A stretch of 64,000 nt of DNA from Chiloscyllium plagiosum. Its lineage: Eukaryota. Where the stretch lies: positions 4,064,962 to 4,128,961 of the forward strand of contig NC_057758.1 of the NCBI RefSeq assembly GCF_004010195.1, given 5' to 3'. This document shows, piece by piece, positions 4,218 through 61,690 of the stretch. Positions within the stretch are counted from its first letter, which is position 1; every line of letters begins with the position of its first letter. The position numbers were made by a program, and so were the translations under genes. The notes under the pieces are model-generated. The model saw nothing but the letters and a program-made list of their open reading frames with translations, was not told the DNA's origin and ran no database searches.

Positions 4218-4386
4218 AGGAGAAAGTGAGGACTGCAGATGCTGGAGATCAGAGCTGCAAATGTGTTGCTGGAAAAGCGCAGGAGGTCAGGCAGCATCCA
4301 AGGAACAGGAGAATCAACGTTTCGAGCATGAGACATTCTTCAGGAATCACATTCCTGAAGAAGGGCTCATGCCTGAAACGTCGATC
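4218..4386. mobile_element. Truncated copy of the palindromic hammerhead-bearing mini-element
   Basis: ggagaaagtgaggactgcagatgctggagatcagagc...ttcttcaggaat followed by CCTGAAGAAGGGCTCATGCCTGAAACGTCGA (plus-strand hammerhead motif, about 4354-4384). Confidence 0.8.
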
Positions 4387-14837: not shown

Positions 14838-17800
14838 AGGTTGTGAGAAGATTTGTAGCTCGGGTGCTCGTTGCTGTGGTTCTGTTCGCGAACTGGAGGC
14901 TTTTGTTGCAAACGTTTCGTCCCCTGTCCAGGTGACATCCTCGGTGCTTGGGAGCCTCCTGTGAAGCGCTTCTGTGGTGTTTCCTCAGGCATTTATAGTG
15001 GCCTGTCCCTGCCGCTTCCGGTTGTCAGTTTCAGCTGTCCCCTGTAGTGGCCGATATATTGGGACCAGGTCTATGTGTTTGTTGATGGAGTTTGTGGATG
15101 AGTGCCATGCTTCTCTGGAATTCCCTGGCTGTTCTTTGTTTCGCTTGCCCGATAATGGTAGTGTTGCCCCAGTCAAATACATATTGCTTGTCGTCTGCGT
15201 GTGTGGCTACTCGGGATAGCTGGTCGTGTCGTTTCGTGGCTAGTTGATGTTCGCGGATGTGGATGGCATGTTGTCTTCCTATTTGTCCTATACAGTGTTT
15301 TGTGTAGTCCTTGCATGGGATTTTGTACACTACATCAGTTTTGCTCATGCTGGGTATCGGGTCCTTCGTTTTGGTGAGTTGTTGTCTGAGAGTGGCTGTT
15401 GGTTTGTGTGCTGTGAAAAGTCCTCGTGTTCGCAGTAGTCTGGCTGTCATTTCAGAGATGTTCTTGATGTATGGCAGTGTGGCTAGTCCTTTGGGTTGCG
15501 GCATGTCCTCGTTCTGTTGTCTTTCCCTTAGGCATCTGTTGATGAAATTGCGAGGGTATCCGTTTTTTGCGAATACCTTATATAGGTCTTCCTCTTCCTC
15601 TTTTTGCAGTTCTGGTGTACTGTAGTGTGTTGTGGCCCTTTTGAATAGTGTCTTGATGCAACTTCGATTATGTGTATTGGGGTGATTGCTTTCATAGTTC
15701 AGAACTTGGACTGTGTGTGTGGCTTTCCTGTGTACCTTAATGGTGAATTCTCCGTTTGGTGTTCTCTGTACCTTCACGCCCAGGAATGGGAGTTGGTTGT
15801 CCTTTTCTTCCTCTCTCGTGAATCGGATTCCTCAAGGTGTCATCAACGTATCTGACCCAGAGTTTGGGTGGAATTTGTGGTAAGACTGTTTGTTCTAACC
15901 TTTGCATTACTGCTTCTGCTATGAGTCCCGAGACTGGTGAGCCCATGGGTGTTCCGTTGATTTGTTAGTATATCTGGTTGTTGAATGTGAAGTGTGTTTT
16001 GAGGCCCAAATCCAGTAGTTTAAGAATGCCGTCTTTGTTGATGGGTTCAACGTCTGTTATGTCTGTTCAGCAGGTTGGCTATTGTTTCTCTGGCTAGGGC
16101 TTTGTCAATAGAGGTGAACAGTGCCGTTAAGTCGAATGAGACCATGGTTTCTTCCTTGTCTAAGTGTATATTTCTGATGATGTCCAAGAATTCCTGTGTT
16201 GATTGTATAGAGTGTCTGGATCCGCTGATCAAGTGTTTCAGTTTCTGCTGTAGTTCTTTCGCCATTTTGTGTGATGGTGTCCCTGGTAGTGATATTATGG
16301 GTCTGAGTGGGATTTCTGGTTTGTGCACTTTAGGTAGTCCACAGAAACTGGGGGTGTTGTTGCTTTGATGTTTCATTCTTTGTAGGTCCGACCTGATTAT
16401 CTGTCCGTTTTTTTTGTAGGTTCCTCAGTGGGTTGTTTATCCGATTGGTGAGCTGTGGGGTGGGGTCAAACTCCTGTTTTTGGTAGGTGTTGCTATCTGC
16501 AAGCAGTTGTTGTGCTTTTTGGATGTACTCTGCTTTGTCCAGGATGACCGTCATTCTGCCTTTGTCTGCTGGTAGTATGATTATGTTCTTATCGTTTCTT
16601 AGTGATTTTAGTGCTTCCCTCTCCTTGGTGTTGAGGTTATGTGTTTGTCTTTTCCTTGTTATCAGGGGTACGATACTTTGTCTCACTGTTTGTTGTGTCT
16701 CTTCTGTCAGTCCATTGTTCCTGAGTCTGCATTCTAGTTCTGCTAGGAAGTCTGCTGTCTTGGCGTCCCTGTGGTTGTAGTTGAGTCACTTGGCCCGTAT
16801 TGTTCTTTCCGTGTCTGTGAGCTGTCTGTGGGAGAGGTTTTCAACCCAGGTGTGTGTTGTGGTGTCCTCTTTGTTGTGTGTTAGTTTGGCCATTTTTTCT
16901 TTTTGTGCCTTTTTTTGCGGTGTGTCGTCCTGTTCTGTCCTATGGTGACAGCCTGTTCTATGGTCCGGGTCCATTCCAAAATTGTGCTTTGGGTTGCGGC
17001 ATGTCCTCGTTCATTAATGATATTAATGATTTAATGATCATTAAAACACGGAAATAGAGAATACACACCGAATCATCAACTCCACACTCACAGGAATCGA
17101 TTCACGAGAGAGGAAGAAAAGGACAACCAACTCCCATTCCTAGACGTGAGGGTACAGAGAACACCGAATGGAGAATTCACCACAAAGGTACACAGGAAAG
17201 CCACACACACAGACCTAGTCCTGAACTATGAAAGCAACCACCCCAATACACACAAACAAAGTTGCATCAAGACACTATTCAAAAGGGCCACAACATTCTG
17301 CAGCACACCAGAACTGCTAAAAGAGGAAGAGGAACACCCATACAAGTTATTCGCAAAAAACGGATTCCCTCACATTTTCATCATCAGATGCCGAAGGGAA
17401 AGAGAACAGAACGAGGACATGCCGCAACCCAAAGAACTAGCCACACTACCATACACCAAGAACATGTCTGAAATGATAGCCAGACTACTGCGACCACCAG
17501 GAGTTATAACAGCACACAAACCAACAGCCACTCTCAGACAACAACTCACCAAAACGCAGGACCCGATACCCAGCATGAGCAAAACTAATGTAGTGTGCAA
17601 AATCCCATGCAAGGACTGCACAAAACGCTATAGAGGACAAACAGGAAGACAGCTAACGATCCGCATCCACGAACATCAACTAGCCACGAAACGACACGAC
17701 CAGCTATCCCTAGTAGTCACACACGCAGACGACAAGCAACATGAATTTGACTGGGACAACACTACCATTATAGGGCAAGCGAAACAAAGAACAGCCAGGG

Positions 17801-18722
17801 AATTCCTAGAAGCATGGCACTCATCAACAAACTCCATCAACAAACACATAGACCTGGACCCAATATACCGACCACACACACAGACCATGTCCAGAACTAT
17901 GAAAGCATCCACCCCAATACACACAAACGAAGTTGCATCAAGACACTGTTCAAAAGGGCCACAACACACTGCAGCACACCAGATCGGCAAAAGGAGGAAG
18001 ATGAACACCTATACAAGGTATTCGCAAAAAACGGTTACCCTCGCAATTTCATCAACTGATGCCTAAGGGAAAGACAACAGAACGAGGACATGCCGCAACC
18101 CAAAGGACTAGCCACACTACCATACATCAAGAACGTCTCTGAAATGACAGCCAGACTACTGCGAACACTAGGACTTATAACAGCACACAAATCAACAGCC
18201 ACTCTCGGACAACAACTCATCAAAACGAAGGACCCGATACCCAGCATGAGCAAAACTAATGTAGTGTCCATAATCCCATGGAAGGACTGCACAAAACACT
18301 ACATAGGACAAACAGGAAGACAGCTAACGATCCGCATCCACAAACATCAACTAGCCACGAAACGACACGATCAGCTATCCCTAGTAGCCACACACGCAGA
18401 CGACAAGCAACATGAATTTGACTGGGACAACACTACCGTTATATGCCAAGCGAAACAAAGAACAGTCAGGGAATTCCTAGAAGCTTGGCACTTATCCACA
18501 AACTCCATCAACAAACACACAGACCTGGACCCAAAAAACCGGCCACTACAGAGGACAGCTGAAACTGACAACTGGAAGCGGCAGGAACAGGCCGCTATAA
18601 ATGCCGGAGGGAACACCACAGAAGCGCTTCACAGGAGGCTCCCAAGCACTGAGAATTTCACCGAGATAGGGGACGAAACGTTTGCAACAAAAACCTCCAG
18701 CTTGGCGAACAGAACCACAGCA
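14838..18722. mobile_element. Penelope-like retroelement (Poseidon type), internally inverted, with 12-bp TSD; decayed
   Basis: Minus arm 14838 to about 16985 encodes RT pieces (IIILPADKGRMTVILDK, GLPKVHKP..PLRPII, MVSFDLTALFTSI, MGSPVSGLIAE, RYVDDT) and thumb/GIY-YIG pieces (VHRKATHT..LNYESNHP, VVYKIPCKD..CIGQ). Plus arm about 17040-18722 repeats the C-terminal part. TTGTTATCACAA occurs at 14826-14837 and 18723-18734. Confidence 0.93.
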
Positions 18723-18943: not shown

Positions 18944-19166
18944 GCTGAAAAATGTTTTGCTGGAAAAGTGCAGCAGGTCAGGCAGCATTCCAAGAGCAGG
19001 AGAATCGACATTTCGGGCGTAAGCCTTTCTTCAGGTATTCGTGAAGAAGGGCTTATGTCCGAAAGGTCGATTCTCCTGCTCCTTGAATACTGCCTGTCCT
19101 GCTGCGCTTTTCCCGCAACACATTTTTCAGCTGTGATCTCCAGCATCTGCAGTCCTCACTTTCTCC
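18944..19166. mobile_element. Palindromic PLE-derived mini-element (same family as 42843-43063) with 14-bp TSD
   Basis: Inverted arms around about 19037. TTATTTAAATATTA (18930-18943) versus TTATTAAAATATTA (19167-19180). Hammerhead-like motifs on both strands, partly mutated. Confidence 0.88.
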
Positions 19167-28869: not shown

Positions 28870-29180
28870 ATTATCTACAGTATTGAAATAGTCTCTTTAG
28901 CCCAACAAGTCCACACAGACCCCCCCACCTCCCCAAGAAGTAAGCCATCCAGACTCCATTCCCCTACCATATATTTATCCCTGACTAACGCACCTAAAAT
29001 AATGGGTAACTCAGCATGACCAATTCACCTGACCTGCACATCATTCGATTGTGGGAGGAAACCAGAACGAACCCTCACAGACACGGGGAGACTGTCAAAC
29101 TTCATACAAGCAGTCGCACGAGACGGGAATCGACTCCGTGTCCCTGGTGCTGTGAGACTAACCACTGAGCCACCGCGTTG
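28870..29180 (-). mobile_element. HE1-like SINE (paralog at about 38360-38670)
   Basis: caattcacctgacctgcacatc...gtgggaggaaaccaga...acagacacggggaga...gtccctggtgctgtgag...ctaaccactgagccacc, including the tRNA-derived head. Confidence 0.8.
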
Positions 29181-32100: not shown

Positions 32101-34521
32101 GCAAGCTGAAGTGCAGGCGTAAGGTGCATGACTTAAACGGTTTGCAACAGTCTAAGCTTTGTCACACACACGTATTAAATTGAAGAACACCAAACCAGTG
32201 GTTTTATATTTTATAAAACTGGGCAGAGGAGGATGTTTCTCCTATTTCCACGTTCCTAAACACTGGGTGATGCCAGACCGTTAAGAATAAAGAGAGTGCT
32301 GAATGATTTCTGAATGCATGTTCTATCAGAAGTGTTTCCACGATCAGCCTCTTGCTCCCATACGCTATCTCTCCATCCCCGATGACGGAGGCAAGGCAAA
32401 TTTTGATGGAAGTAGATAGGAGCTTGCAGGCTATGCTGGCAGAGTCATCTCCGGGAAGTATGAAAAGTTTGAAGTGAGATAACTAGATTTTACAGAGCAT
32501 ATATTTCCGTGAAAGTAAAATGCAGGATTGACAGCAATAGGGAACCCAGCATGACGAGATATTGAGGCTTTTTACGAGAGAAAAGAACAAATTTTGGCAC
32601 TGCTGTCGGCAGCTGGATGAAGGGAACACCAGAGACTTTGCATTTGCAGAATTATATTTGCAGATCAACATTGTTTTGCACAAAAAATGAATAACTTGTA
32701 GGGAGTCAATGAAGACAATCATTCCATATGATATTTAATAAATTCTGCTTTGGAAATAAACCCAGTCTGTCTCAAAATTGGGTACAGACAGATTCTGACC
32801 TCACTGCTTCAGTGCATTGTCTGAGCTGAGATGACGCCTTCTTCTATGCATCCTTAAGTTACGTTGACAATGGGAATTAAAAGAAGTTCTAGAATTTACA
32901 TATTAAGATCTGCAAACCTGTTTTGAAAGATGAAAGACGCAACAGCAATCTGTGTTCGTTAAAGACATTTTACTTGCATGTCATTAAATTTTTGCGATAA
33001 ATTCTTTGTTTTATGTTCATGATTCACAGCCACCTGAATAAGGAGCAGTGCTCTAAAATGTCGCGCTTCAAAATAACAATGTTGGGCTGTACCCTGGTGT
33101 TGTGCGATTTTTAACTTTGGCTTCTCTGAATAACAACTAAGTTTCTCTTGTGCCAGGTGACGCTCGAACAAGCAGATTGAACATCTGTCACTCCACCCAC
33201 TCTATTCTCATTGAATTTGGATCGGCAAGGGCTCATTGATGCCACTCGACGTCAAATCCAACGTTGATCATAAGGGCAGTCACTCTCACCTCACCTTTGA
33301 AATTCATTTCTTTTATCTCGTGTTTACATTGACTCATGTCATATTTGGTGAAGTTGGCATATTTGTTGCCTGTCCCAGCTGCCTATTCACAAGATGGTGG
33401 CGAGACATCTTTTTGAACCATTGCAGTAAATTGTGGGCGAATTGATCAATGTCTGTGCATGGTGATTGGAACTCCAAAAAAACTACTCCTTCGTGTTCAG
33501 AGATATCCCGTCTCTTATAACTTTGATCAGGAAAATCAGATTGGATAGTGCATTGAGGCAAGTCTTCGAGGGAAATATTGAGCAATCCAAAATTGTTTAA
33601 ACTCAGAAACATTTAACATTCTGTAACGCCAGGAGAGAAAGAGGAGGAAAGAGAGAATGAGGGAAAGCTGGATAGAAATGGAAGGACTAGTGAGAAATTG
33701 AAAATATTTGGGGAATAGAACTGAAAGAGACAGTGGTCCATGCCTGTTTACCTGTTTAACTCCAGCCTTGGCTTTATCCTGTCCTAATGGGAGGTTACAC
33801 ACATGCGACTGATTCGTTTTACCCAGCCGGGATACGATTTGGCCGTGGGAGATCTCAATGTTGAAGACAGACTTTGCGATGGCTCATTAAATGAGGAATG
33901 ACACAGGAAAGCATCCTGCTACTGGCTCTCCCACAGCACCCGCTGTTATCTGACATATCTGTCATTTCTGCAAGATAAATTCCACTCGGAGGATTCTCTG
34001 AGGAGACCAAATGATACAGAATAGATTCTTGCCTGTCGACCTAGAGGCATCGTCGGTAAAGAAGGAACTCATCACAACTGAACTGGTTGATCACGTGTTA
34101 TGAGATCACAAATCATGTGGTGAAATACCGAGAGGGAAACATCCACTTGGTTTTAGTCCCATCGACGTCCCCGTCACAGATACACATGTACCGATTGCGT
34201 TAAAGGTGAGGAGAGGTCACACTGTTGGGAGTTTTCTATAGGCCTCTGCAAAGTCCCAGAAATGTAGAGAAAAGGATTTCGAAGATTATTCTGGATAGGA
34301 GCGAAAGTAACAAGGTACTTGTAAGACTTTAATATCTGAATATTGATCGGAAACACGAGAGTAGGAGTACATGAGTTTTGTCAGCTTTTGTCCAATGTGT
34401 GCAGGAGGGTTTCCGGACTCAGGAGGTACATGGGCCAACAAGAGCTGAGGCCACAATGCATTTAATACTTGGTACTGAACCATAACAAGTGTTACATTTG
34501 GTGGTAGTTGAGCACTTTGTT

Positions 34522-36597: not shown

Positions 36598-36840
36598 GTG
36601 AAAAATCGACGTAAATCAATCGGTTTACTGTTTGCTATCTCTGTGAATTTTAGCTTAATACGGACAATGATGATGGTTTATCCGAGACATGACTTTCTTT
36701 AGTTACAATCCGATATGGATGTCTCACATAGCACATGAAAGAGACTTCATGCTGCAGCTGCTGAGTTGCTGTGAAAACCACTTGTCATTATGACGTGATC
36801 GGAAAGAAGTTTTGAGAGCATTTGAAAAGTATTGAACTGT
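36598..36840 (+). pseudogene. GPR139-like pseudogene fragment (TM6-TM7), duplication copy 2
   Basis: VKNRRKSIGLLFAISVNF...FMLQLLSCC, with the same frameshift pattern as 27112-27355. Confidence 0.85.
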
Positions 36841-39320
36841 GATTTGATCGGATTATTATATGTATTAAACGACGATTAAAAAACTAAAAATACTTTACTG
36901 TCTCTAAAATCTGTTCATTAAAGTTTAATTCACCTTATTTTGTTACCAAATGAAACAACTCACGTAAATCACCAGTACGGAATCCGTGGCTCTACACCCG
37001 ATTCTGTATCAAGTCTTCCCTTGTATCGATGCGACATCACATTCAATAAGGTGTCAGCATGTGTCCCAAATGTCCTTCTTCATTGTACTTTTCTGTGACA
37101 GTGATTGTTTATTATTGAGTATGATGCTTTGCCCAACGAAACATATAGTGCTCACACGAATGATTTTCCTCACTGAGTCACTGGAGCCCGTGCTGTGGTC
37201 AGCACCTGCAGCAGTGCACTCAGGAAGCACTGTCCAGAGATTATTTTCCCATCATTTCGAAGGAAGGTTGATGAAGGCCTCAGACTTGACATGTTGTGAA
37301 TTGGAAATGCTAATCAATTTATCACAGCGTCCACGGTGTCTTTTATTATGTTTTTACTGATCACGGCTACAGAACGTGCAGACAAATGGATTCCTGTGAG
37401 CAGCATCAACGTATCTTCGATATGATGCACACTGATGCTCCTGTGTGGGGATAGTGGAGAGTCAATGTTTCAGTGGTCGATGCGCTACTAATCAAATGAC
37501 CTACCGTGTCAGACATAAAGCAAGGGTTGATTTCATGGAATTTCCAGACTTTGACCTGCTGTTGGAATACCAGGATGCATGTTGTTGTTCAGGTGCAGAT
37601 CGAAATGAATGGCCCATCACAGGCTGTGAATTGTGTGCGATGTCGTGACGGGAATGTCATTGAACATGAAGGCTGGTGTGGTGCGGAGTAGTTTGATTTA
37701 ATTTTGTGGAAATTAGGATTTTGCTGAAGACTATGTGACACTATGTGACACTACAGCCCGTTGCTATTTGTCAGTACAAACCTGACTATCCTCTGTATCA
37801 TCATGCAGTTGGATGTAGAGTGGCGCATTACAAATGCATCTGATCAAATCTTTTTGCAGTACTTCCAGTTGTGATTGTAGACTGAAAATTGGACAGTTGT
37901 AGGAAGAGGGACATTACCGGTACCTCTGAAATTAACCCAAGTCTGAAACATTTGCACTCCTTTTCAATGATGTGATACATTAGTTGGAGGATCGCTTCAC
38001 ACTCTCTGTCGCATTCAGAAGGCATAAAATGCTGAGTTTATATTATAAATAATTGCTTCATAAGTTGGTAATGAAATGCCTCACAAACCATTACCTTTCA
38101 TCCTGTCAATCACATGATTTGCCTTTGTGCACGGAAAACGCTTTGAAGAATACCAGAAATGGTTACAAAACGAATAGCCCAGTGTCAAATTTACAAAGAG
38201 TTGCAAATGTGAATACCATAGCCGTAAAAGGGATCAATTAACATGAGAACCAGAGATATTTGGAAAAATGGTCATAGTCCAGATTACTCAATGTGACCAA
38301 ATAATGTTTCGCTTAGACTATCCCGAGTTATAGCTTTTGGAGATGGAAATTAGTTTAGATTATCTACAGGATTGAAATAGGCTCTTTAGCCCAACAAGTC
38401 CACACCGACACCCCCCCCCCCCACCAAGAAGTAACCCATCCAGACCCCATCCCCTACCATATATTTATCCCTGACTAACGCACCTAAAACAATGGGTAAC
38501 ATGGCATGACCAATTCACCTGACCTGCACATCATTGGATTGTGGGAGGAAACCTGAGCGAACCCTCACAGACACGGGGAGACTGTCAAACTTCATACAGG
38601 CAGTCGCACGAGATCGGAATCGACCTCGTGTCCCTGGTGCTGTGAGACTAACCACAGAGCTACCGTGTTGCTACGATTCGAAACTCTGTATGACCAGCTC
38701 TGCCTCCCATGTGACCCACTTATTTGGAGGTAAATGATGTAAACATAGTGTGTTTTGTTTTCTCAGTTTTTTTGTCTGTTTCTGAGTCTGTGTCTCAGTC
38801 TATCAGGCCCATTAACAGCCATGCATCTTGTGTTCAGTTCTGTCTGCAATGGAACACTGACATGAATGAATGAATTAGAAAGTGATAAAGCAAAGTCGCA
38901 GAGTCTCTTGCTGCCTGCCCCTCTTTTCTTTAAAGTGATATCATGCCAGCCTCCTGGTTTAATTACGTCACAACACAAACACAAACTTTGTTTTGTTTGA
39001 AGATTTTATCAATGCCTCTGAATATCACAGGTCAAGCGTAAAGAGTAATCAGTTTTCGAGGGCGTTTGGTCAATTGCATCGATTATCCAGTCCTGAAGAT
39101 GTGAGAATTAATTGCACATGAAATCGAACTCACAGTCAGCCGACGGGGGCATCAATTCCCCTATTACGTTAATGCTCAATCCTCCCATAGTGAGGGGTGG
39201 ATCAATCCTTCATTACATTGCTCATTCAGTCTTCCAGGAAATGTTTCAATCTCTGATCAAATATTTATCATTCTCCCTGTTTTATAAAATCTGTTTTTCT
39301 CTCTGATATTTTCTCTGTCA

Positions 39321-39777
39321 NNNNNNNNNNNNNNNNNNNNNNNNNNNNNNNNNNNNNNNNNNNNNNNNNNNNNNNNNNNNNNNNNNNNNNNNNNNNNNNN
39401 NNNNNNNNNNNNNNNNNNNNNNNNNNNNNNNNNNNNNNNNNNNNNNNNNNNNNNNNNNNNNNNNNNNNNNNNNNNNNNNNNNNNNNNNNNNNNNNNNNNN
39501 NNNNNNNNNNNNNNNNNNNNNNNNNNNNNNNNNNNNNNNNNNNNNNNNNNNNNNNNNNNNNNNNNNNNNNNNNNNNNNNNNNNNNNNNNNNNNNNNNNNN
39601 NNNNNNNNNNNNNNNNNNNNNNNNNNNNNNNNNNNNNNNNNNNNNNNNNNNNNNNNNNNNNNNNNNNNNNNNNNNNNNNNNNNNNNNNNNNNNNNNNNNN
39701 NNNNNNNNNNNNNNNNNNNNNNNNNNNNNNNNNNNNNNNNNNNNNNNNNNNNNNNNNNNNNNNNNNNNNNNNNNNNN
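39321..39777. other. Assembly gap (457 N)
   Basis: Run of N. The corresponding interval in copy 1 is only 85 bp (30010-30094). Confidence 1.
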
Positions 39778-42700
39778 TTTACCTCGCTCATTAACAACCT
39801 TGCCCTCTTCTCCTCACTTACTCCTTATTGCTCAGATATTACCGTCTATCTTTGTTTCACGTTCTCTTTTTTTACGACTTGTCTCTTTGCCCCTTCCTCC
39901 CATTATCTCCGAGGTCACCTCTCCCTGGGTCTTCCTTCTTCCCACAAGGTTAAAATATTTCTGGTATTGGATCATTGCCAGATTGGTAAAACTTTTCTGC
40001 TGAAGTGAAACTGAGTTACGACCAGTCGCCATCGAATATGAAACACAACAACAAAGTTGCAATGAATGAGCAGTCCCTGATAACCTAGCAGCTCTTTACC
40101 TATCTGGAGACAGTGGAGAAAAGTCCTTAACCGACGACTGTTCAAATATCACTCGTTGTCGAAAGTAAAAATGTTGAAATGTTTAGATCTTATTTAAGAA
40201 TTATGTATAATTTCGCTGTCCACATCTATTGGGGATGTAGCATTAGAAGTAGACTGATACAAGCATCACTTTCAGGCAAAAGTTCGTTGTTCATTCCTAA
40301 TGACTAGCCTTGGTCATTAGCCTTAACTTCATGGCAGATTTAGTTCAAACTTTCACAAATTATAGGAGGTAACATTAACTGGCTTTCACAGCAAGACAGT
40401 ACCGAAATGATTTTATAATCCAGGACACAAAGCCAATCTAGAGTGAAGGGACTGTGAGGGACGAACGTCCTTGAGTTAGAGTCATGCTTAGATCTAATAA
40501 CGATGCTAATGGCTCTTGGAAGCTATTGTTGCAGTCTCAGGATATCGAAGCTTAATTTCCTCTGGAACATATACCAATGATGAGGTGCAATACATGAGTT
40601 CAGAAACAACGGACACATCTAAAAAATAAGGGGCCACCATGATGTAGCTTTCCTGATGAAATAGCAATGTGGCAGAGAGAGCATGCAATAGTCATAGCTC
40701 TGTGATCCGACAACCAAGGAGTCAGATAAAACTTCCGAAGCCTGACTGTCCGTTGTGGTGGTGTTCAGGTTAATATAAAGTAAAAAGGAAGAGCTTCAAC
40801 GACTCTCCCCATCATAAATGATAAAGGAGCCCTGTCTGTTATGATAAAGATGAGGCTGAAGCATTCCAAAGACGTCCTCATATAGGAACATTATTCGGAT
40901 GATCCATTGCACCTCATGAACAGAATAAATTAGTAAATACTCTCTGATAAATCTAGATTGAGATTATGCATTTTTGTATGTTTAGACAACTAGTTGCCCG
41001 ACAAATCGCTGCACATCATTTCCCTTCATTTTATATATTAAACGAAAGGTAGTTTGAAAGACAATGGTTAAGCTTCAGTGTCATTTTCAGCGACAGCTCA
41101 TTCCTTGCAAATTTGTTCACGTGTCTCAGATTCGAAACTAAATGTTTGGAGAGGAGAAGGTGTAGAATTAGATTAGTATTGAGAGAAACAGAAATGGGAG
41201 AAAAGGAGAGAATGGCTGAGATGGACGTAATTCTTAAAGAAGGGGTGAGAATGAGAATCAATGAAACAAAGTATCATCCATTTTCGAAAAGGCTATTTAG
41301 TTTATCAAGTCTTTGCTTCCAAACCTATGGAGACACATAGAAGGACACAGTAAGTCAGAGTAAACGAGAAAGATCGTCGGAATTACGCTAAAAGAAAAAC
41401 TTTCCACTTCATCTATTCCATTCAGAGGGTGTTCCACGTTCTATGCAATCTGCGAGTTCAAAGCGAATGTTGCCAGTTTTTGAAGTCCCTGTACAAAATG
41501 CCCAACTCTCTCTCTTCCCCTCTTTCTCTGCACCCCACCCACCCCAACCTTCTCCTTCACGATAGGGATTTATAGAGAAGACATGGGGCAAATTCCTCCT
41601 CTCCTGCGTTACGCTAGGGCTCGGTGTACATTCACGTCAGCTATTTGGCACCTTGTGCTATTTAGTGTTGTGGTCAACATCGTTCAAATTTACTTCAGAA
41701 CCTAAGGAACAGTTCCATGCCTGGGTGTCAATGAGACATTGTGGACCATGAGCAGGTTAATTGAGAACGGTAATGATTCAATAGTAGAATCTATGCAAGC
41801 TGAAGTGCAGGAGTAAGGTGCATGACTTAAACAGTTTGCATGAGTCTAAGCTTTGTCACACACACGTATTAAATTGAAGAACACCACACCAGTGTTTTTA
41901 TACTTTATAAAACTGGGCAGTGGAGGATGTTCCTCATATTTCCACGTTCCTAAACACTGGGTGATGCCAGACCGTTAGGAATAAAGAAAGTGCTGAATGA
42001 TTTCTGAATGCATGTTCTATCAGAAGTGTTTCCACGATCAGCCTCTTGCTCCCATACGCTATCTCTCCATCCCCGATGACGGAGGCAAGGAAAATTGTGA
42101 TGAAAGTAGATAGGAGCTTGCAGGCTATGCTGGCAGAGTCACCTCCGGGAAGTATGAAAAAGTTTGAAGTGAGATAACTAGATTTTACAGAGCATATGTT
42201 TCCGTGAAAGGAAAATGCAGGATTGACAGCAATAGGGAACCCAGCATGACGAGATATTGAGGCTTTTTACTAGAGAAAAGAACAAATTTTGGCACAGCTA
42301 TGGGCAGCTGGATTAAGGGAACACCAGAGATTTTGCATGTGCAGAATTATATTTGCAGATAAACATTGTTTTGCACAAAAAATGAATAACTTGTAGAGAG
42401 TCAATGAAGGCAATCATTATGATATTTCATAAATTCTGCTTTGGAAATAAACCCAGTCTGTCTCAAATTGGGTACAGACAGATTCTGACCTCTCTGCTTC
42501 AGTGCATTGTCTGAGCTTAGATGATGCCTTCTTCTATACATCCTTCAGTTATGTTGACAATGGGAATTAAAAGAAGTTCTGGAATTTACATATTAAGACC
42601 TGCAACCCTTTTTAAAAGATGAAAGACATAACAGCAATCTATGTTCGTTAAATATATCATTTTACTTGCATGTCACTAAATATTTGCGATAAACTCTTTG

Positions 42701-42842
42701 CTTTATGTTCATGATTCACAGCCACCAGAATAAGGAGCAGTGCTCCAAAATGTCGCGCTTCAAAATAACAACGTTGGGCTGTATCCTGGTGTTGTGCGAT
42801 TTTTAATTTGGCTTCCCTGAATAACAACTAAGTTTCTCTTGT

Positions 42843-43063
42843 AGAGAAAGTAAGGGCTGCAGATGCTGGAGATCAGAGCTGAAAATGTGTTGCTGGAAAA
42901 GCGCAGCAAGTCAGGCAGCATCCAAGGAACAGGAGAATCGACGTTTCGGGCATAAGCCCTTCTTCAGGAATCAGCTGAAGAAGGGCTTATGCCCGAAACC
43001 GTGATTCTCCTGATGCTTGAATGCTGCCTGACCTGCTGGGCTTTTCCATCAACACATTTTCAG
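42843..43063. mobile_element. 221-bp palindromic PLE-derived mini-element with 15-bp TSD, present only in duplication copy 2
   Basis: Flanked by CTAAGTTTCTCTTGT (42828-42842) and CTAAGTTTCCCTTGT (43064-43078). The empty site in copy 1 is at 33137-33151. The arms are inverted around about 42970. Confidence 0.93.
42938..42968 (-). ncRNA. Minimal hammerhead ribozyme motif
   Basis: Reverse complement reads CCTGAAGAAGGGCTTATGCCCGAAACGTCGA: CUGAAGA core, stem II GGGC-UUAU-GCCC, then GAAAC-GUC. Confidence 0.72.
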
Positions 43064-43309
43064 CTAAGTTTCCCTTGTGCCAGGTGACGCTCGAACAAGC
43101 GGATTGTACATCTGTCACTCCACCCACTCTATTCCCATTGAATTTGGATCAGCAATGGCTCATTGATGCCACTCTAGGTCAAATCCAACGTTGATCATAA
43201 GGGCAGTCACTCTCTCCTCACCTATTAAATTCATTTCTTTTATCTCGTGTTTACATTGACTCATGGCATATTTGGTGAAGTTGGCAGTGCAGGATTTGTT
43301 GCCTGTCCC

Positions 43310-43519
43310 AGCTGCCTTTTCACAAGATGGTGGTGAGACATCTTATTGAACCATTGCAATAAATTGTGGGGGAATTGATCAATGTCTGTGCATGGTGATT
43401 GGAACTCCAAACAAAGCTGCCTTTTCACAAGATGGTGGTGAGACATCTTTTTGAACCATTGCAATAAATTGTGGGCGAATTGATCAATGTCTGTGCATGG
43501 TGATTGGAACTCCAAACAA
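43310..43519. repeat. 105-bp direct tandem duplication private to duplication copy 2
   Basis: agctgccttttcacaagatgg...ggaactccaaacaa occurs at 43310-43414 and 43415-43519. It occurs once in copy 1 (about 33377-33481). Confidence 0.9.
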
Positions 43520-43949
43520 CCTACTACTTCGAGTTCAGAGATATCCCATCTCTTACGACTTTGTTCAGGAAAATCAGACTGGATAGTGCATTGAGGCAAG
43601 TATTCGAGGCAAATATTGAGACATCCAAAATGGCTTAAAATCAGAAATATTTAACATTCTGTAACGCCAGGAGAGAAAGAGAAGGAAAGAGAGAATGAGG
43701 GAAAGCTGGATAGAAATGGAAGGATGAGTGAGAAATTGAAAATATTTGGGGAATAGAACTGAAAGAGACAGTGATCCATGCCTGTTTACCTGTTTAACTC
43801 CAGCCGTGGCTTTATCCTGTCCTAATGGGAGGTTACACACACCAGAAGCGACTGATTCGTTTTACCCAGCCGGGAAAGGATTTGGCCGTGGGAGTTCTCA
43901 ATGTTGAAGACAGACTTTGCAATGGCTCATTAAATGAGGCATGACACAG

Positions 43950-44301
43950 GAAAGCATCCTGCTACTGGCTCTCCCACAGCACCCGCTGTTATCTGACATA
44001 TCTGTCATTTCTGCAAGATAAACCCCACTCGGAGGATGCTCTGAGGAGACCAAATGATACAGAATAGATTCTTGCCTGTCGAATAGACGGTCAAAATCGA
44101 GGGCGTCGTAGGTAAGAAAGGAACTCATCACAACTGAACTGGTTGATCACGTGTTATGAGATCACATCTCATGTGGTGAAATACCGAGAAGGAAACATCC
44201 ACTTGGTCTTAGTCCCATCGACGTCCCCGTCACAGATACACATGTATCGATCGCATTAAAGGTGAGGAGAGGTCACACTGTTGGTAGTTTTCTATAGGCC
44301 T
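43950..44301 (-). pseudogene. Possible decayed Ig/TCR C1-set exon (paralog at about 33900-34245)
   Basis: Phase-1 acceptor (intact ctttgcag in copy 1), then KLPTV*PLL...GCFLLGISP...T*(W?)...SSFLTY...VY(x)C-like sequence over about 100 codons. Similarity is by eye only. Confidence 0.3.
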
Positions 44302-45249
44302 CCGCAAAGTCACAGAAATGTAGAGAAAAGGATTTCGAAGATTATTCTAGATAGGAACGAAAGTAACAAGGTACTTGTAAGACTTTAATATCTGAATATT
44401 GATCGGAAACACGTGAGTAGGAGTACATTAGTTTTGTCAGCTTTTGTCCAATGTGTGCAGGAGGGTTTCCCGACTCAGGAGGTACATGGGCCAACAAGAG
44501 CTGAGGCCACAATGCATTTAATACTTGGTACTGAACCATAACAGTTGTTAGATTTGGTGGCAGTTGAGCACTTTGTTGATAGTATTCAAGTTTGGTAACG
44601 TTTACTTTTGCGATGGCAAGGGACTAGTACATACTGCAGGGCAAGAGGTATGGTGGGGGTAAAGGCATTATGATGCGATGTGGCAAGACTTAGGATGCCT
44701 GGGATGTGAATGGAAACTGCAGGCGATGTGCACAATTTAAATACGTACCTGTCAGGCAGGGAGAACGAACTTTACTAAATAAGTTGACCCTCTCGTCAAT
44801 ACGAAGAATGAGGGTTTTGCAAGGATAAAACGAGAAGGCTTACTTGAGCGCTTGAGAGGTACAAGATTTCCAGGAGGGGCATACAGTGAGAGCTCCGACG
44901 AGCCAGGAGGAAACATGAGAACTATTTGGCGGGTTGGATCAACGAATGCCCTGTAGATTTCGAATGGTATGTCGAGAATAAAAATAAATTACTTGATTAA
45001 GTGTGAAGGATCGTCAAGGTGAAAATACTTCACTTCATGGTGTCTCTCCAAGTCATATACCTTTGCGTTCTCAGACACGTGAATAAAACCCGGTGATACG
45101 TACGAGAACTGATTATCGTTATTTTGTTTCCCATTCAGACCAGTGGCATAACACAGTGAAATGAAAGAAGTAGGCGATCATAAACTGGGCAAGGTACATT
45201 TAACGCCTTCTCACTGCAGAAGCTTCGTTGCTGTGCAGACATTTGATTT

Positions 45250-48180: not shown

Positions 48181-51100
48181 TGGTTACAAACAATGAGTGC
48201 AGAAGCTGGAAACCAGAATCTAGATTAGAAAGGTGCTGGAAAAGCACAGCAGTTCAGGCTGTATGCAAGAAACAATAAAATCGAAGTTTCGGGCAAAAGC
48301 CCTTCATCAGGAATACAGGCAGAGAGCCTGGAGGGTGGAGAGATGAATGAGAGGAGGGTGGCAGTGGGGAGAAAGAAGCATAGATTACAAAAGGTGAGTG
48401 GGGGAGGGGATGAAGGTGAGGTTGAGTGGATAGTAGGAAAAGAAGATAGGCATGTCTGACAAGTCATGGGGACAGTGCAAAGCTGGAAGATTGGAACTGG
48501 GGTGAAGTGGGGGGAAGGGGAAATGAGGAAACTATTGAAGTCCACATTGATGCCTTGGGGTTGAAGGGTTCCGAAGTAGAAGATGAGGCGTTTTTCCTCC
48601 CGGCGTAAGGTGGTGAGAGAGCGGCGGTGAAAGAGGGCCACGACCTTCAATGTCCTCGGCAGAGTGGGAGGCAAAGTTGAAATGTTGGGCCACAGAGCGG
48701 TGTGGTTTATTGGTACGGGTGTCCCACAGATTTCCTTTAAATCACACAACTAGTAGGCGTCCAGTCTCCCCAATGGAGAAGAGACCGCATCGGGAGCAAA
48801 GGATACAATAAATGGTATTGGTGGATGTGCCGGTAAGACTTTGATGGATGTGGAAGGATCCTTTATGGACTTGGATGGAGGGGGTGTGGACGCAGTTTTT
48901 GCAATTCCTGCAGTGGCAGGGGAAGGTGCCACATTGGAGCGTGAGTTGTAGGGGGGCGTGAACCTGACCAGGTAGCCATGGAGGGAACGGTCTTTGCGGA
49001 ATGTGGAAAAGGGTGGAGAGGGAAATATATTCCTGGTCGTGGGGTCCGTTTGGATGAGGCGGAAATGTCGGTGGATGATTTGGATTGTGAGAAGGTTGGT
49101 AGGGTGGAATGTGAGCACCGGGGGCGTTCTGTGCTTGTTACGGTTGGAGGGGTGGTGTCTGAGGGCAGAGGTGCGGGATGTGGACGAGATGCGTTGGAGC
49201 GCATCTTTAATCACGTGGGAAGGGAAATTGTGGTCTCTAAAGAAGGAGGCCATCTGGTGTGTTTTGTGGTGCAAATGGTCCTCCTGGGAGCAGAAACGGC
49301 GGAGGTGCAGCAATTGGAAATACGGGATGGCATTTTGCAGGAGGTAGGGTGAGGAGAGGTGTAATCCAGGTAGCTGTGGGAGTTGGTGGGTTGGCAAAAA
49401 ATGTTGGTGTCAAGTCGTTCGTCATTAATGGAGATGGAGAGATCCAGAAAGGGGAGGGAGGTGTCCAAGATGGTCCAAGTAATGTTATGGTCATGGTGGA
49501 ATGAGTTATTGAAGTTGAGGAATTGCTGAACCTCCTCGCGGGAGCACGAGCTGGCGCCAATGCAGTCGTCAATGTGGCGGAGGAAGGGCTGAGGAGTGTT
49601 GCCGTTGTAATTACGGAGGATGCACTGTTCTACGTAGCCAACAAAGACGCAGGCATAGCTGGGGCCCATACGGGTCCCCATGGTCGGCAGGAAGTGGGAG
49701 GATTCGAACGAGAAATTGTTAAGGGTGAGGACCAGTTCTGCCAGTCGAATAAAAGTGTCGGTGGAAGGGTACTATTGCGGACGTCGGGAGACGAAGAAAC
49801 GTAGTGTTTGGAGGCCCTGGTCATGGCGGATGGAGGTTTAGAGGGATTGGATATCCATGGTGAAGATAAGGCGTTGCGGGCCGCGAAAACGGATGTCTTG
49901 GAGGAGGTGGAGGGCGCGGGTGGTGTCTCGAAAGTATGTGGGGTGTTCCTGGACTAGGCAGGAGCATGCTGAGACAATGAGTCGGCCAGGGTGGTCAGGC
50001 TTGTGGAACTTGGGAAGGAGGAAGAACCAGGCAGTGCGATGTTCCCGGATTATGAGGTTGGAAACTGTAGGTGGGAGATCTCCTGAGGCGATGAGGTTCT
50101 GTATGGTCTGGGAGATGATGGTTTGGTTATTGGGGGTGGGGTCATGGTCAAGGGAGAGGTAGGAAGAGGTGTCCTCGAGTTGACATTTGACTTCAGCGGT
50201 GTAAAGGTCAGTGCACCAGACTACCACTGTACCCCCTTTATCTGCTGGCTTGATGGTGAGGTCGGGATTGGAGCAGAGGGATTGGAGAGCTGCGCGCTGT
50301 GAGGGCGAGATGTTGGATTGGGGGAGGGGGTAGAGAGGTTAAGGCGTTTAATGACCAGATCAGGCAGCATCCGAGGAACAGGAAAATCGACGTTTCGGGC
50401 AAAAGCCCTTCATCAGGAAAGTAAGCTCGGAGGCGTAGTTGTGGAGCTGGGGGGAGGGGATGGAGACTGTAACTGGAGTGGGTGTGGTGTTAGGGGAATT
50501 GGGGTGGAGTCATGAGCAAGGGTGGTATTCCGCTCAGGGTTCTGGGGGCAGGGATTGTGACAGTGGGAACTGGGGGGGTGGGGGTGTCAGCAGAATTCAG
50601 GTGAGTGGCGTTGGTGGCGGCGGAAGTGGTGGCAAACACGGCGGCAGTATGGAGGTGGCAGTCACTGAGCGTGTGACATCAGCGATGATGTGAGGGGCGC
50701 AACGAACCACCCTCCCATCCTGGCACCTTCCCCTGCCACCGCAGGAATTGCAAAACCTGTGCCCACACCTCTTCCCTCACCTCCATCCAAGTCCCTAAAG
50801 GAGTCTTCCACATCCATCAACGTTTACCTGCACATCCACCAACATCATTTATTTTATCCATTGCTCCCTATGGGGTCCCCTCTCCACTGGGGAGACTGGA
50901 CGCCGCCTATAAGAGCACTTTAGGGAATATCTCTGCAACACCCGCACCAACAACCACACCGTGTTGTGGCCCAACATTTCAACTCTCTCTCCCACTCTGC
51001 CGTGGACATGGACGTCGTGGGCCTCCTTCACCGCCGCTCCCTCACCACCGGACGCCTGGAGGAAGAACGCCTCGTCTTCCACCTCGGAATACTTCAACCC

Positions 51101-51460
51101 CAAGGTATCAATGTGGACTTCAACATTTACTCATTTTCCATTCCCCCACCTCACCCCAGTTCCAAACTTCCAGCTCAGTACTGTCCCCATGACTTGTCCT
51201 ACCTGCCTCTCTTCTTTTCCTACTATCCACTCCAGCCACCTCCCCTCTGACCTATCACCTTCATCCGCTCCCCCACTCACCTATGTTACTCTATGCTACT
51301 TTCTGCCCACCCACACCCTTTTCTCATTTATCTCTCCGCTCTTCAGGCTCTCTGCCAGTATTCCTGTTGAAAGGCTTTAGCCCGAAACGTCAATTTCATT
51401 CCTCCTCGGATACTGCTTGAAATGCTGTGCGTTTCCAGAACCAATCTAATCTAGACTATA
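48181..51460. mobile_element. Penelope-like retroelement (Neptune type), internally inverted; decayed
   Basis: Minus arm encodes LPKFHKPDHPGRLIVSACS, IFTMDIQSL, MGTRMGPSYAC..FLRHIDDCIG, SHSYLDYTS.HP, AIPYFQLLHLRRFCS and an endonuclease region. Plus arm about 50700-51455 repeats the 3' end. Degenerate TSD: AGTTGAAGAGTCAGG (48166-48180) versus AGTTGGAGAATCAGG (51461-51475). Confidence 0.88.
50387..50419 (-). ncRNA. Minimal hammerhead ribozyme motif with canonical CUGAUGA core, internal to the Neptune-type PLE
   Basis: Reverse complement reads TTCCTGATGAAGGGCTTTTGCCCGAAACGTCGA. Confidence 0.75.
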
Positions 51461-55150: not shown

Positions 55151-55675
55151 CTGTAAATAAATAATTCATCATCAATTTACTTGTTAAATTTACAGTAAGG
55201 GAAATTATACTGAACTTACATCACACCACAGGTTACTGAACATAGCCTCGTGAAACTTAGCAAAAGACTTACTTTAGGCCGTTTCAGAATTGCATTTATC
55301 TCAAGAGATGGAACGCAGCTTTATTTACCAAGACCTCTGCTTTCCTCCATTTTACAGTTACAATCTGCAATGGAAGAAGAGATTAAAATTGGGTAATGCA
55401 CTACGTTGATTTCTTCACCCTGAACATTTGTGCATTGCTTTTCTTTGGAATCTTGCTTCTTTGTTTTCCTGCCAATTTTTAAAAAATGCAGCAGAAATAA
55501 AACGGCGATCAATCTATCACAGTCATTTTCATTTATGTGCTGCTTCTGTTACTTTCATGTGGTAAGAACAAAACCAATGAACTGAAGTAAAGTACATAAT
55601 AGTAACAGAACTTTTGGCCCTCCAAGCAAATCAGCAAGTTGTTGTGGTTCTGATCGCCGAGCTGGGAATTTGTGT

Positions 55676-55716
55676 TGCAGACGTTTCGTCCCCTGTCCAG
55701 GTGACATCCTCAGTGC
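55676..55716 (-). ncRNA. Minimal type I hammerhead ribozyme motif
   Basis: Reverse complement reads GCACTGAGGATGTCACCTGGACAGGGGACGAAACGTCTGCA, with intact cores. Confidence 0.75.
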
Positions 55717-55778
55717 CTGGGAGCCTCCTGTGGAGCGCTTCTGTGATGTTTCCTCCGCCGCTTCACGGTGGCTCCCAA

Positions 55779-55819
55779 GCACTGAGGATGTCACCAAGAC
55801 TGGGGACGAAACGTCTGCA
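55779..55819 (+). ncRNA. Minimal type I hammerhead ribozyme motif
   Basis: GCA-CTGAGGA-tgtcaccaagactggggac-GAAAC-GTC-TGC: CUGANGA and GAAA cores, stem II, palindromic stem III, GCA/UGC stem I. Predicted cleavage after C55815. Confidence 0.75.
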
Positions 55820-58134
55820 ACACAAATTCCCAGCTCGGCGATCAGAATCACAACAACGAGCACCCGAGCTACAAATCTTCTCCCAAACTTTGAAAATAAA
55901 GCAAGTAAAATAAAAGCAACCTTTCTGCCCTATTTCGTTCCATAACCGTCTATTCTCTCCCTCGTCATGTCACCATACAGATGCTTCAGAAATGTCAACA
56001 GCCAAGAAATGCTTCCACCACTTGTTCTGGCAGAGCGTCAAGACTCCTACCACTCTCTGCGTGAGGAAAAAGACTTCCCACGCTAAACCCTCTTAGATTT
56101 GTCCACGAATGCAACTAGGGAATGAATAATCTTAATTCTGTCCAGATGCATATACTCCTTTGTATGCATTTAGAAGTGTTCCATTTCTTATGATCTTGCC
56201 CTGTTTACAGTTGCTTTCACTTTTGATAGATTTACAGCCATTTCTGTTTAGAAACTAGAATCAAGATACTGCAAGAGGAGAACGGCACGTGTGGTTATGG
56301 GTTTGTACGAGTGCTACCAGTAGTTTGCCTTCAATTCCTGGTCCTTTGTATTTGAACCTACTTTTATTTCTGAATATGTGCCGTAATTTTGAATCTTGCC
56401 AACACAGTGTTATTCCGTTTTTTGTTGGACAATCTATAATTTAATTTGACTTGATACGATTTATTGTCCCGTACAACTGGGAACAGTGAAAAAAGATTTG
56501 TTTGTGATCAGTACTAGCAGAGCATAGTAATCAAAGACATGCAAATCATAGGGTGAAAAAGAAATCTGGACAGAGGAAGCCATGCAGTTTACGACGCACA
56601 AAACTTACACGAAGCAAGATCAACATCTAAAAGCGACACACAAATAATCACAGACCAAATATAGCACGTCTTTCTGAAAGGATTGGAAGAAATCCTAACA
56701 TTCATATTGTCTTATTACATTGTACCAACCAACGGATATAATGCAGTATGAGCACTTATCAAAGAATATAACATAGATCATTATTTTTTTTACCAGGAGA
56801 AAACAAGAATATGAAATCACTTGCCCTGATGTTTATGAACTTACCCCCGATGTGTCACAGTTTCGGACCATGTAACAAAAGTTACTAAACTTTGCTGTTC
56901 GGTGTACTAAGATTTCAGTCAATCAGAACTGTGCCAAATGGAAACAAGTTTAATGGATCACCAAGACCTGAAAGTTGCATTAGTGTATGGCAATCAGGAG
57001 ACACATTAAATACGATGATCAAGAAAGAATATTCACCTCATGGTTTTGTTCACATCTAATCCTGCAGAAAATTCATAAACGCCCTCAAGGATATTTATCA
57101 AACAATTCAAGCACTTTTCTAATAATATATGGCACAGTATTTCACAAAGGAAATGATTTAGAGCAAACGTTTTATTTTTTAGAATTCCAGAACTTTCAGA
57201 TTGTTGATGAATCTGCAGTCAGATTTCTGCTGTCAGAGCAGAAGAAGAATTCCCCGTTCAGCTTCTGCGAGTAAGATTTGGCTTGGAAATTAACAAATCC
57301 TGGCAAATAAGTTACATTTCACACATGAACATTATAGTGCAGTTAAATATTATCTTATATAACAAACATTCGAGTGATAGTCTTACAAGTAACACCAAAA
57401 GCTACAAGTACAGTGCAATAAATACTCTGTAACTGGAAGATTACCAACTACTTCAATTTTACAAGTAGGCTCTGATGTTGTGGAGTCAATAAGTTTTACT
57501 TCTGAACGATAGTTCTATCTTAAATGCAAACACTTGGAAGAGGAGTCAGTGAAAAACTCGATCTCATATTAAACATTTCGTTTGCCAAATTGAGGAAGTA
57601 ATCCAGAGGCACTGGGGAAAAATAATCAGTATGGAATAGTTGGATACATTGCATGTGGTGGACAGATTAACATGAGAAAAACAAGAAGACATACAGTGGG
57701 AAAGTCATTATTAGTGTGCTGACCAGAGATGTGCACTGAATCTTGAAGATGATCTGAGTACAGGTTTATATAGAAAATTACTCCAGAAAACCAGGGATTA
57801 CATTTCAATTTCAGTAAGATTACTGGAGGGAGGATAAAAAAGCGCAGTTAAATTTCCAGTAGATAATACTTTAATGGGATACTTTGGAGACTGTTTTTCA
57901 GATGTTTAGCGTCCACCATCAGTTACTTTTTTATTGATGCTTTGGACTGATTATGAATGTAAACTTTTCCACCACAAACACCAGAACAAATAAAGTCAAT
58001 ACCACAATCCAAGATCTTCCATTCTCTCCATTGGACTGGACATAAAGATCAACCAGGTGCAAGGATAAACATTTTATTTAATGATCTTTTTTACGCTCAG
58101 TGGGAATTCAGCATTCACTGGCATGTCCATGAGT

Positions 58135-60559: not shown

Positions 60560-61690
60560 GCAAAGTGGTCTTGAGTTTTGACAATGCGATCTGAGGGAAT
60601 CTTACAGAATTTCGTCAATACGTCCTGAATAAGGTACATTGCGCTGCGCTGCTTCTGAGCGTGGGCGTTGGAGCGATTGGATCGTTGGGAATATAATGCC
60701 ATTCATGCAGTGTGTTCTTAAGACTTCTTAAGTGTTGTTGCTGCTGCACTCGTCCAGACAAGTTGGCAGTAATCCATAAAACTCATGACCTGCGTCTTTT
60801 AGATTATGTAGAGTATTTGGTCACAGCTTTCGGCACAGAATTCCAAGTCTCTGACGAGTTGCTGTATCTAATGTGTTTACCTGGTGAGTCCAGTTCAGTT
60901 CCTTGTCAAATGTAAACCCCACGATGTTGATAGTGGAGCTCATTGAAAGTAACACCATTGAATGCGAAGGGGTAATTGTTATTTTGACTCTTCTTGGTAG
61001 AGTTCATAACTTGGCAGTTGTATGACGTGGATGTGACTTGCAAGTCATCAGTGGAAAATGTGTTGCTGGAAAAGACAGCAGGTCAGGCAGCAACCGAACA
61101 GCATCAAAATCGACGTTTCCTGATGAATTGGCTTTTGTTCGAAATGTCGATTTTCCTTTTCCTCAGATGCTGTTGTGCTATTCAAGAACAACTCTATCGA
61201 CTGTATTCTCCAGCATCAGCAGTCCTCACATTAGCCCTGTCACTTGTCAGCCTAGCCTACACATCGTATAGATCTGGTTGCATTTTAAAATTGAGTGTCT
61301 CTGTACCTACGTGGATGCAAATGTGAGGAAGATTGGACAGTCAACAGCAACATCTCCACTCATGAAATTATGATAGAGTAGCTGAAGAAAATTTGGCCTT
61401 GGGCAATTCCCTGAGGAACGCATGTCTAGATGTTCTGGAACTGAGATGACTGACCTCCAACAACCTCGACATTTGGACTATCTTCTGGGTATGTTCCCAA
61501 TCACTGGTGCATTTTCCCTTGTTAACTATTGATTCCAGGTTTGCTTATGCTCGCTCGAATGCGACCTTGAAGTCAAAACCTGTTAGTGCCCTCATCTCTT
61601 AAATTCAGTTAAGTCCATGTTTGAAACAAGGCCATAATGTGGTGCGTATTTGAGTGACTATGCTCCAATCCAATCAGGCCTTTCGTTCTG
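60560..61690 (-). mobile_element. Decayed CR1/L2-group LINE fragment, interrupted by the 61051-61236 mini-element
   Basis: Reverse complement shows LDFKVAF (gcgaccttgaagtcaa) and GVPQG-like (ccctgaggaac) RT motifs. Confidence 0.55.
61051..61236. mobile_element. Decayed palindromic hammerhead-bearing mini-element nested in a LINE fragment
   Basis: aaatgtgttgctggaaaag...aatcgacgtttc, then CTGATGA...GAAATGTCGA, then ctccagcatcagcagtcctcac. Confidence 0.7.

Follow-up and report, generated by a model that had tools for sequence, protein, structure and literature searches.

The 221-bp palindromic insert at 42843-43063 of the window (the whole 64,000-nucleotide stretch of Chiloscyllium plagiosum DNA analysed here, to which all coordinates refer), which we call copy A, is probably a dead, extremely 5′-truncated insertion of a Neptune-type Penelope-like element (PLE), with a hairpin that would have been made during integration by dual priming. 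In terms of class, copy A is an EN+ Penelope-like insertion in its extreme 5′-truncated form, which is a known kind of insertion. Its value lies in being a clean, datable case of a known PLE insertion pattern at its smallest size whose pre-insertion sequence is also preserved, which makes the 15-nt stagger, the priming overlap of 0-2 nt and the two start points directly legible. PMC8557442 and PMC11167929 treat the making of inverted PLE ends and the function of the minimal hammerheads as open questions. Taken alone, this locus contributes little apart from its empty site and the comparison with outgroups; the abundant family to which it belongs offers a large natural data set on dual priming versus fold-back and on the stops at the hammerhead.

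The filled site, its empty counterpart and the anatomy of the insert

A global alignment of the copy A locus against 33000-33300 opens a single gap of 236 nt, equal to the 221-bp insert plus one of the 15-bp direct repeats flanking it, and thereby bears out the filled site and empty paralog described in the initial annotation. The parts of the locus are the following.

42828..42842, plus strand: left target-site duplication of 15 bp, with the same letters as the lone target copy of the empty paralog
42843..42878, minus strand: PLE "tail" of 36 unpaired nt, absent from the short arm and ending outward at the family's fixed 3′ end
42843..42971, minus strand: long arm, by homology the 3′ end piece of what looks like a Neptune-type PLE (hammerhead, about 60 nt and tail), sense on the minus strand
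42940..42967, minus strand: intact minimal type I hammerhead, C3 at 42967 and C17 at 42940
42972..42974, no strand: a filler of three bases between the two arms, peculiar to copy A
42975..43063, plus strand: short inverted arm, 89 nt, no tail, beginning exactly at C3 of the second hammerhead copy, GUC lost
43064..43078, plus strand: right target-site duplication, 15 bp, one mismatch
33137..33151, plus strand: empty paralogous site with a single target copy, identical to the left repeat

The inversion read at the outset from two inverted arms stands, with the qualification that the arms are unequal: copy A is a 129-nt long arm with a 36-nt tail, three filler bases and an 89-nt inverted arm without a tail. 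The arms at 42843-42971 and 42975-43063 lie head to head, as an inverted 5′-truncated copy placed next to the 5′ end, and there is neither an open reading frame nor internal PLE sequence. The 15-bp duplication is likewise present, although it is imperfect, since its left and right copies agree in 14 of 15 letters; a match of at least 14/15 at one fixed pair of positions has a chance of 6e-8. The last two possible bases of the short arm overlap the right duplication. The outer end of the tail is marked by a pile of loose ends at 42844 (383 contigs in run X1, 754 in X14 and 833 reads in X21), and the flanks beyond this pile are unlike each other (agreement 0.36-0.47).

The two paralogs, which we call the 33-kb and 43-kb copies, differ in 421 of 8828 aligned letters (4.8%) and form a 9.5-kb duplication (25542-44577) that is split by N gaps at 34522-35021 (500 N) and 39321-39777. 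Contigs and reads of four runs were aligned to 42300-43400 at 85% likeness, with the X1 and X5 contigs representing related organism A, the X14 contigs related organism B, and X21 RNA reads of organism A. An empty-form joint running from 42837 to 43074 (a skip of 236) was found in one contig each of X1, X5 and X14, and a second X14 contig likewise jumps the insert. At 43107, the depth in X1 and in X5 is that of the empty contig alone, and in X14 three contigs make up the depth, two of which are shown to be empty and the third of which has no alignment to the insert. The flank pieces of organism B differ by about 8-10% from the window. The filled form was not seen in organism A or B among the part of the pieces displayed, and contigs drop rare variants, so that its absence there is not proven. 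The presence of the empty form in both organisms indicates an insertion at the copy A site and not an excision at the empty one; judged from these sequences, the empty form is ancestral. The earlier proposal that the element entered one paralog after the duplication is supported by these data.

An excision would require that the insert predate the duplication and that the empty paralog have lost the hairpin precisely, through slippage between the direct repeats, a process known from long inverted repeats. A long palindrome between short direct repeats is a classic substrate for it, and the divergence between the arms of copy A exceeds the 4.8% between the paralogs. Specifically, the inverted arms at 42877-42967 and 42975-43065 are 90% complementary and differ in 9 of 91 letters (7 events), with most changes on the short arm. 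Relative to the paralogs this excess gives P 0.03 by letters and 0.14 by events; it is mild and unexplained. The empty joint with the skip of 236 in X1 and X5 (organism A) and in X14 (organism B) largely refutes the excision, and we give it next to no credence.

With respect to the nature of the duplication itself, the 33-kb and 43-kb copies might be two haplotypes scaffolded in tandem, which would make the filled and empty sites alleles as opposed to paralogs. The two copies are indeed separated by the 500-N gap, the second gap lies within the second copy, and organism A contigs show a single version near the site that has 11 of 13 listed letters in common with the 33-kb copy, no counterpart of the 43-kb copy being seen in these contigs. 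Set against this are the 4.8% divergence, which is high for alleles, and the right flank (about 43.1 kb), which occurs in at least three versions in organism B, compared with one in organism A contigs. The segment is thus multi-copy in the lineage of organism B, and we consider the haplotype reading very improbable. The insertion event stands whether the filled and empty sites are alleles or paralogs.

Several smaller features of the flanks were noted. At 43144, the window paralogs share one letter and organisms A and B another, in contrast to other positions, where organism A groups with the 33-kb copy; either gene conversion between the paralogs or repeated change could give this pattern. 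A 105-bp tandem duplication at 43310-43519, 98% alike, is present only in the 43-kb paralog, and the left flank holds two more repeats (42559-42669 and 42707-42817), seen as high summed contig depth.

Related Penelope-like copies and the one-sided tail

The end module of the copy A family recurs 11 times in the window, both ends of the larger element D included, and a second PLE family is represented as well. The copies and elements referred to below are these.

4219..4385, no strand: copy C, a long arm plus a 35-nt stub of an inverted arm; no duplication found
14838..18722, no strand: element H, a decayed 3.9-kb Poseidon-type PLE, parent family of G
18944..19166, no strand: copy B, 223 bp, built like copy A but in the opposite orientation, with a 35-nt tail, a 14-bp duplication (13/14) and a centre of its own
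48181..51460, minus strand: element D, a decayed 3.3-kb Neptune-type PLE with a 750-bp inverted segment and a one-sided tail (up to 38 nt)
55638..55889, no strand: element G, a 252-bp palindrome from the second PLE family, carrying one intact minimal hammerhead on each strand
61054..61232, no strand: copy F, a diverged palindrome with a short arm that ends within the hammerhead; no clear duplication

Element D, which has a 15-bp duplication (13/15), provides the link to a coding PLE. Its translation holds pieces of reverse transcriptase (RT) and a CxxxxCxxC linker ahead of a GIY-YIG-like motif. Among Atlas look-alikes of the D pieces, one at 0.97 carries RVT_1 on 11% and HTH_animal on 14% of its members, and a second at 0.93 carries GIY-YIG on 10% of its members; Pfam, PDB and phage-record searches of the decayed RT and endonuclease pieces returned no match. 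The long arm of copy A matches this PLE at both ends (84% identity over 81 nt), and it is 90-92% identical to the copies at 4220 and 19037-19165. The module that element D carries is homologous to that of copy A at 76-84% and represents an older variant of it, so the exact parent of copy A does not lie in the window. By way of element D, then, copy A is by sequence homologous to the end module of an element with RT and GIY-YIG. A Zn-finger-like CX2-5CxxC linker before the endonuclease is described as a feature of the Neptune clade (PMC8557442), and the linker of element D points there; carried over through the homology of the end modules, copy A looks Neptune-type too.

Two further details of element D were recorded. 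A 60-nt hammerhead piece lies inside it at 50360-50419, just ahead of the RT region and homologous to the copy A arm. It is 93% like that arm, and closer to it than to D's own ends; it begins 3 nt ahead of the core and lacks a tail, as either a nested stub or a template switch might leave behind. Upstream of the element D hammerhead by about 16 nt, a pyrimidine-rich tract ending in AG (48320-48345, minus strand) resembles a 3′ splice site. In a Drosophila element described in PMC4209133, the end of an intron is placed at the start of stem I, and splicing could be relevant to the stopping of copies close to the motif.

In the second family, element H is a textbook complex insertion with a 1-kb inverted segment, a 34-nt one-sided tail and a perfect 12-bp duplication, together with an internal 675-bp partial tandem (17201-17875 / 17872-18546). 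Element G has a 32-nt one-sided tail and only a doubtful duplication. Taken together, all five insertions whose ends can be defined, which belong to two families and span 0.2-3.9 kb, carry a 32-38-nt extension at a single end (A 36, B 35, D up to 38, G 32 and H 34 nt); copies C and F, having no clear duplication, are omitted from this count. This agrees with descriptions of typical PLE insertions as having an inverted 5′-truncated copy, a tail of 30-40 bp at one end and target duplications (PMC8557442, PMC3846280).

The tail has been ascribed to resolution by the endonuclease (PMC8557442). In vitro work on the PAc protein of an anole Poseidon element describes a predicted dimer that cuts and extends both target strands and starts reverse transcription at two sites, the interval between which is the tail; hammerhead cleavage is not needed (PMC11167929). 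The two start sites, the cutting and extension of both strands and the uncleaved template together predict the outer ends seen in copy A.

Compared with the complex EN+ PLE insertions described in PMC3846280 and PMC8557442, copy A shares the head-to-head end modules, the tail on one arm and the short duplication, and like them it is homologous to an RT/GIY-YIG-like PLE, here one in the same window. It differs in having no open reading frame or internal sequence, in that both arms are trimmed to the front edge of the hammerhead, and in a duplication of 15 bp versus the 8-10 bp of the rotifer examples in those papers. Of the initial claims, a PLE origin and a non-coding insert retrotransposed with a target-site duplication are well supported.

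The copy A family is very abundant: the three contig runs contributed 51,002, 79,974 and 61,247 contigs aligned to the stretch. Over the arm, summed depth exceeds that of the unique flank by about five orders, a depth that is not a copy number. Exact-pattern scans for further copies in viral contigs, prokaryote genomes and metagenomes found none, as expected for a vertebrate repeat.

The hammerhead motif and its predicted folding

On the minus strand (42967-42940) the long arm carries CUGAAGA, one bulged A, a 4-bp stem II, GAAAC and GUC, and so possesses all the hallmarks of a minimal hammerhead, namely the CUGANGA/GAAA/UH core, stem II, the bulge after A9 and a palindromic 15.2-16.2. Its stem I is weak (four of five pairs, with one U-U), and the predicted cut falls between 42940 and 42939. 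The plus-strand copy at 42975-42999 retains CUGAAGA, stem II and GAAAC but lacks the GUC (UH) triplet and falls outside the definition of a minimal hammerhead. A hammerhead had initially been assigned to each arm; only the one on the minus strand is intact. The further description as a "double hammerhead" fails, as the motifs are on opposite strands and one is broken. Each strand holds one motif and its antisense, which means that no transcript holds two.

A scan with a minimal-hammerhead descriptor modelled on PMC4209133 gave six matches in the window versus a mean of 0.12 (maximum 2) in 100 shuffles, and all six fall in the Penelope-like repeat copies treated here. No hammerhead family of Rfam reached its gathering score over the window, or an E of up to 10 over 42700-43200, where the only matches were sub-threshold chance matches of hairpin or miRNA type that reflect the hairpin.

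The motif closely resembles the metazoan PLE minimal hammerheads of PMC4209133 in its CUGANGA, the single base between 9 and 10.1, the G-C first pair of stem II, the palindromic 15.2-16.2, the lack of a stem III loop and the short stem I. It departs from them in that stem II has 4 bp here, as against the 7-8 bp of the Schistosoma example. The same paper already reports PLEs with two motifs on opposite strands, at spacings of 100-700 bp, whereas those of copy A are only 7 bases apart. Low in vitro activity is also reported there for PLE minimal hammerheads.

In terms of folding, copy A is predicted to form one long hairpin (MFE -147.5 kcal/mol, z -17, with 0 of 200 shuffles as good) in which the tail stays single-stranded. 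The pairing probability of stem II is 0.99 in an isolated 50-mer, but 0.03 in the sense arm alone and 0.0 in the full minus-strand RNA, where forcing stem II costs 32 kcal/mol. The antisense arm is transcribed first on either strand, and the shortest transcript that reaches the cut site is already predicted to fold as a hairpin. Judged by these predictions the hammerhead rides along as a passenger, since any RNA read through the insert would bury the motif; a ribozyme-active unit, as first proposed, is not supported, given the stem II value of 0.0 for the full-length RNA. The arms contain the whole motif, which indicates that their templates were not cut at GUC. When two 45-nt motif pieces were cofolded, partial intermolecular pairing was predicted and no recognisable double hammerhead.

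RNA run X21, a polyA single-cell library of which about 2/100 was covered, gave 3002 reads on the stretch, including 31 at 99% or more and none on 43077-43298, and among the entries listed there was no pile-up of read beginnings or ends. Because the library comes from organism A, whose contigs show no filled copy A, it is silent on expression or cleavage at this locus.

The closest non-coding comparison is with the non-LTR retrozymes (bioRxiv 10.64898/2026.07.22.740005), which occur in a chondrichthyan among other vertebrates and, like copy A, are non-coding, PLE-derived and equipped with a type I hammerhead. Retrozymes as described there consist of direct tandem repeats with two cleavable motifs on the same strand. 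Copy A is instead a single inverted pair with no tandem unit and no second complete motif, and the motif it has is predicted to be unable to fold.

How the hairpin arose

The centres of the palindromes are the most informative feature with respect to mechanism. They differ in all four of the window copies A, B, C and F, with 3 filler bases in A, 0-2 bases and a longer arm in C, and 20-odd bases lost on one side in F. In the wider family we obtained 281 joints and 348 filler entries, and the 15 and 12 of these that were displayed show varied breakpoints and fillers, with long-arm ends from 42901 to 42971; many joints are short-sided (18-28 letters), and copy A's own mutations may account in part for those that end at 43018-43025. 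Another centre, two bases shorter than that of copy A, is found in 14, 56 and 39 contigs. Variants are also shared within elements. The A-run has 4 letters in both arms of copy A and 5 in both arms of copy B (the 5-run makes up about 4-7% of the family depth), and a loop variant is common to both arms within A, within B and within C. Such sharing is what a single source transcript or locus per insertion would give, and it is compatible with dual priming and fold-back alike. The differing centres and the shared variants together suggest that the hairpin was most likely built anew at each insertion.

The initial annotation left two choices, a hairpin formed anew or a hairpin that is itself the mobilised RNA, and the centres favour the former. 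That the 221-nt hairpin should itself be a mobile RNA, non-autonomous and copied in full by the PLE enzyme, is improbable in our estimation. Copies A and B are nearly equal in length (221 and 223 bp) and in their outer ends, and the single-stranded tail could still serve as a start site. Nonetheless, the outer ends follow the tail rule that is also obeyed by the kb-sized elements D and H, so the match between A and B reveals no fixed unit. Moreover, A and B share no fixed differences between long and short arm, and the changes in copy A, read by eye, are mixed, without the A-to-G bias expected from dsRNA editing.

Some centre variants do occur at multi-locus depth. One joining 42908 to 42974 with a 17-letter filler reaches a depth of 533.7 in X1, versus 25-45 for single-locus contigs, which implies that some hairpins multiplied after forming. 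Multi-locus centre variants may make up a minority of the family. A fixed hairpin unit, recognisable from the same centre and arm-specific letters in dispersed copies, was not found, there being four copies with four centres. The breakpoint and duplication comparison originally suggested gives, for the window copies, differing centres and duplications of 15 (A), 14 (B), 15 (D) and 12 bp (H), and the label "non-autonomous element" is overstated unless a short dedicated template RNA exists.

For hairpins made during integration, the reading that we prefer is dual priming. The PLE RT-endonuclease would nick both target strands 15 nt apart, creating two 3′ ends, each of which would prime a cDNA on uncleaved PLE RNA. 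Priming at the distal start site would yield an arm with a tail, and priming at a proximal site 36 nt further in would yield an arm without one, with the help of 0-2 nt of microhomology. Both cDNAs would end on reaching the hammerhead's front edge, after which they would be joined head to head with the 3 filler bases, and gap filling by repair would then produce the target-site duplication. Consistent with this scheme, the short arm may share bases with the target (2 in copy A and 1 in copy B), as expected for priming by microhomology. We infer the dual priming by analogy, from the in vitro behaviour of another clade: PAc is a Poseidon protein, whereas the copy A family looks Neptune-type. PMC11167929 does not show inverted-insert formation and does not address inverted mini-inserts or cDNA stops.

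Fold-back is a different route to a hairpin formed anew, in which one cDNA (or an antisense template) would prime itself and the endonuclease would trim the second arm at the tail boundary. Self-priming has been proposed for head-to-head inverted junctions (PMC3846280), the attribution of the tail to endonuclease resolution (PMC8557442) suits it, and the rare variants found in both arms of an element fit one template molecule; fold-back of one cDNA in fact accounts equally well for this sharing. It fits less well with the position of the short arm, which ends where a second RT start site would place it, and with the centres, which show fillers or unequal arm ends (A, C and F) and not a fold-back stem. 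The arm divergence in copy A is, if anything, too high for self-copying. On balance we consider fold-back unlikely.

A feature that dual priming leaves unexplained is the point at which the arms stop. Eight of the 11 arms of the copy A family in the window end 0-7 nt before C3 (6 of 9 when copy A is left out), as read by eye with the parent's upstream letters taken from the loose-end consensus at 42971. Of the remaining family arms, one stops inside the motif and the two of element D run far upstream. The arms of element G, from the other family, pass the motif and run about 23 and 47 nt upstream of it, which indicates that the front-edge stop is not general. A template that begins at this edge, a stop of the RT, or pairing of two hammerhead modules could each produce the pattern.

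It is conceivable, if rather doubtful, that the hammerhead sets the inversion point without being cut, or that an RNA of about 130 nt is used twice as template. In the first of these readings, a PLE protein dimer would hold two RNA modules paired through the palindromic stem III and a swapped stem I; each module would be copied from one nicked target strand, and the cDNAs would meet at the motif's front edge and be joined there. In the second, the ~130-nt RNA, starting just before the motif, would be the template and would serve twice per insertion. Either would, if true, explain the 8 of 11 stops and would assign a structural role to the minimal hammerheads of PLEs, which are weakly active. 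We found no paper on the front-edge stop in the open-licence literature and bioRxiv, and the supplements of PMC4209133 and PMC11167929 may hold cases.

Elsewhere in the window, a reading-frame piece on the minus strand at 21328-21813 has no Pfam match and is, by eye, what we take to be a fragment of a LINE reverse transcriptase. At 12465-13418 lies an intact single-exon reading frame for a rhodopsin-family GPCR (7tm_1, E 6.6e-13).
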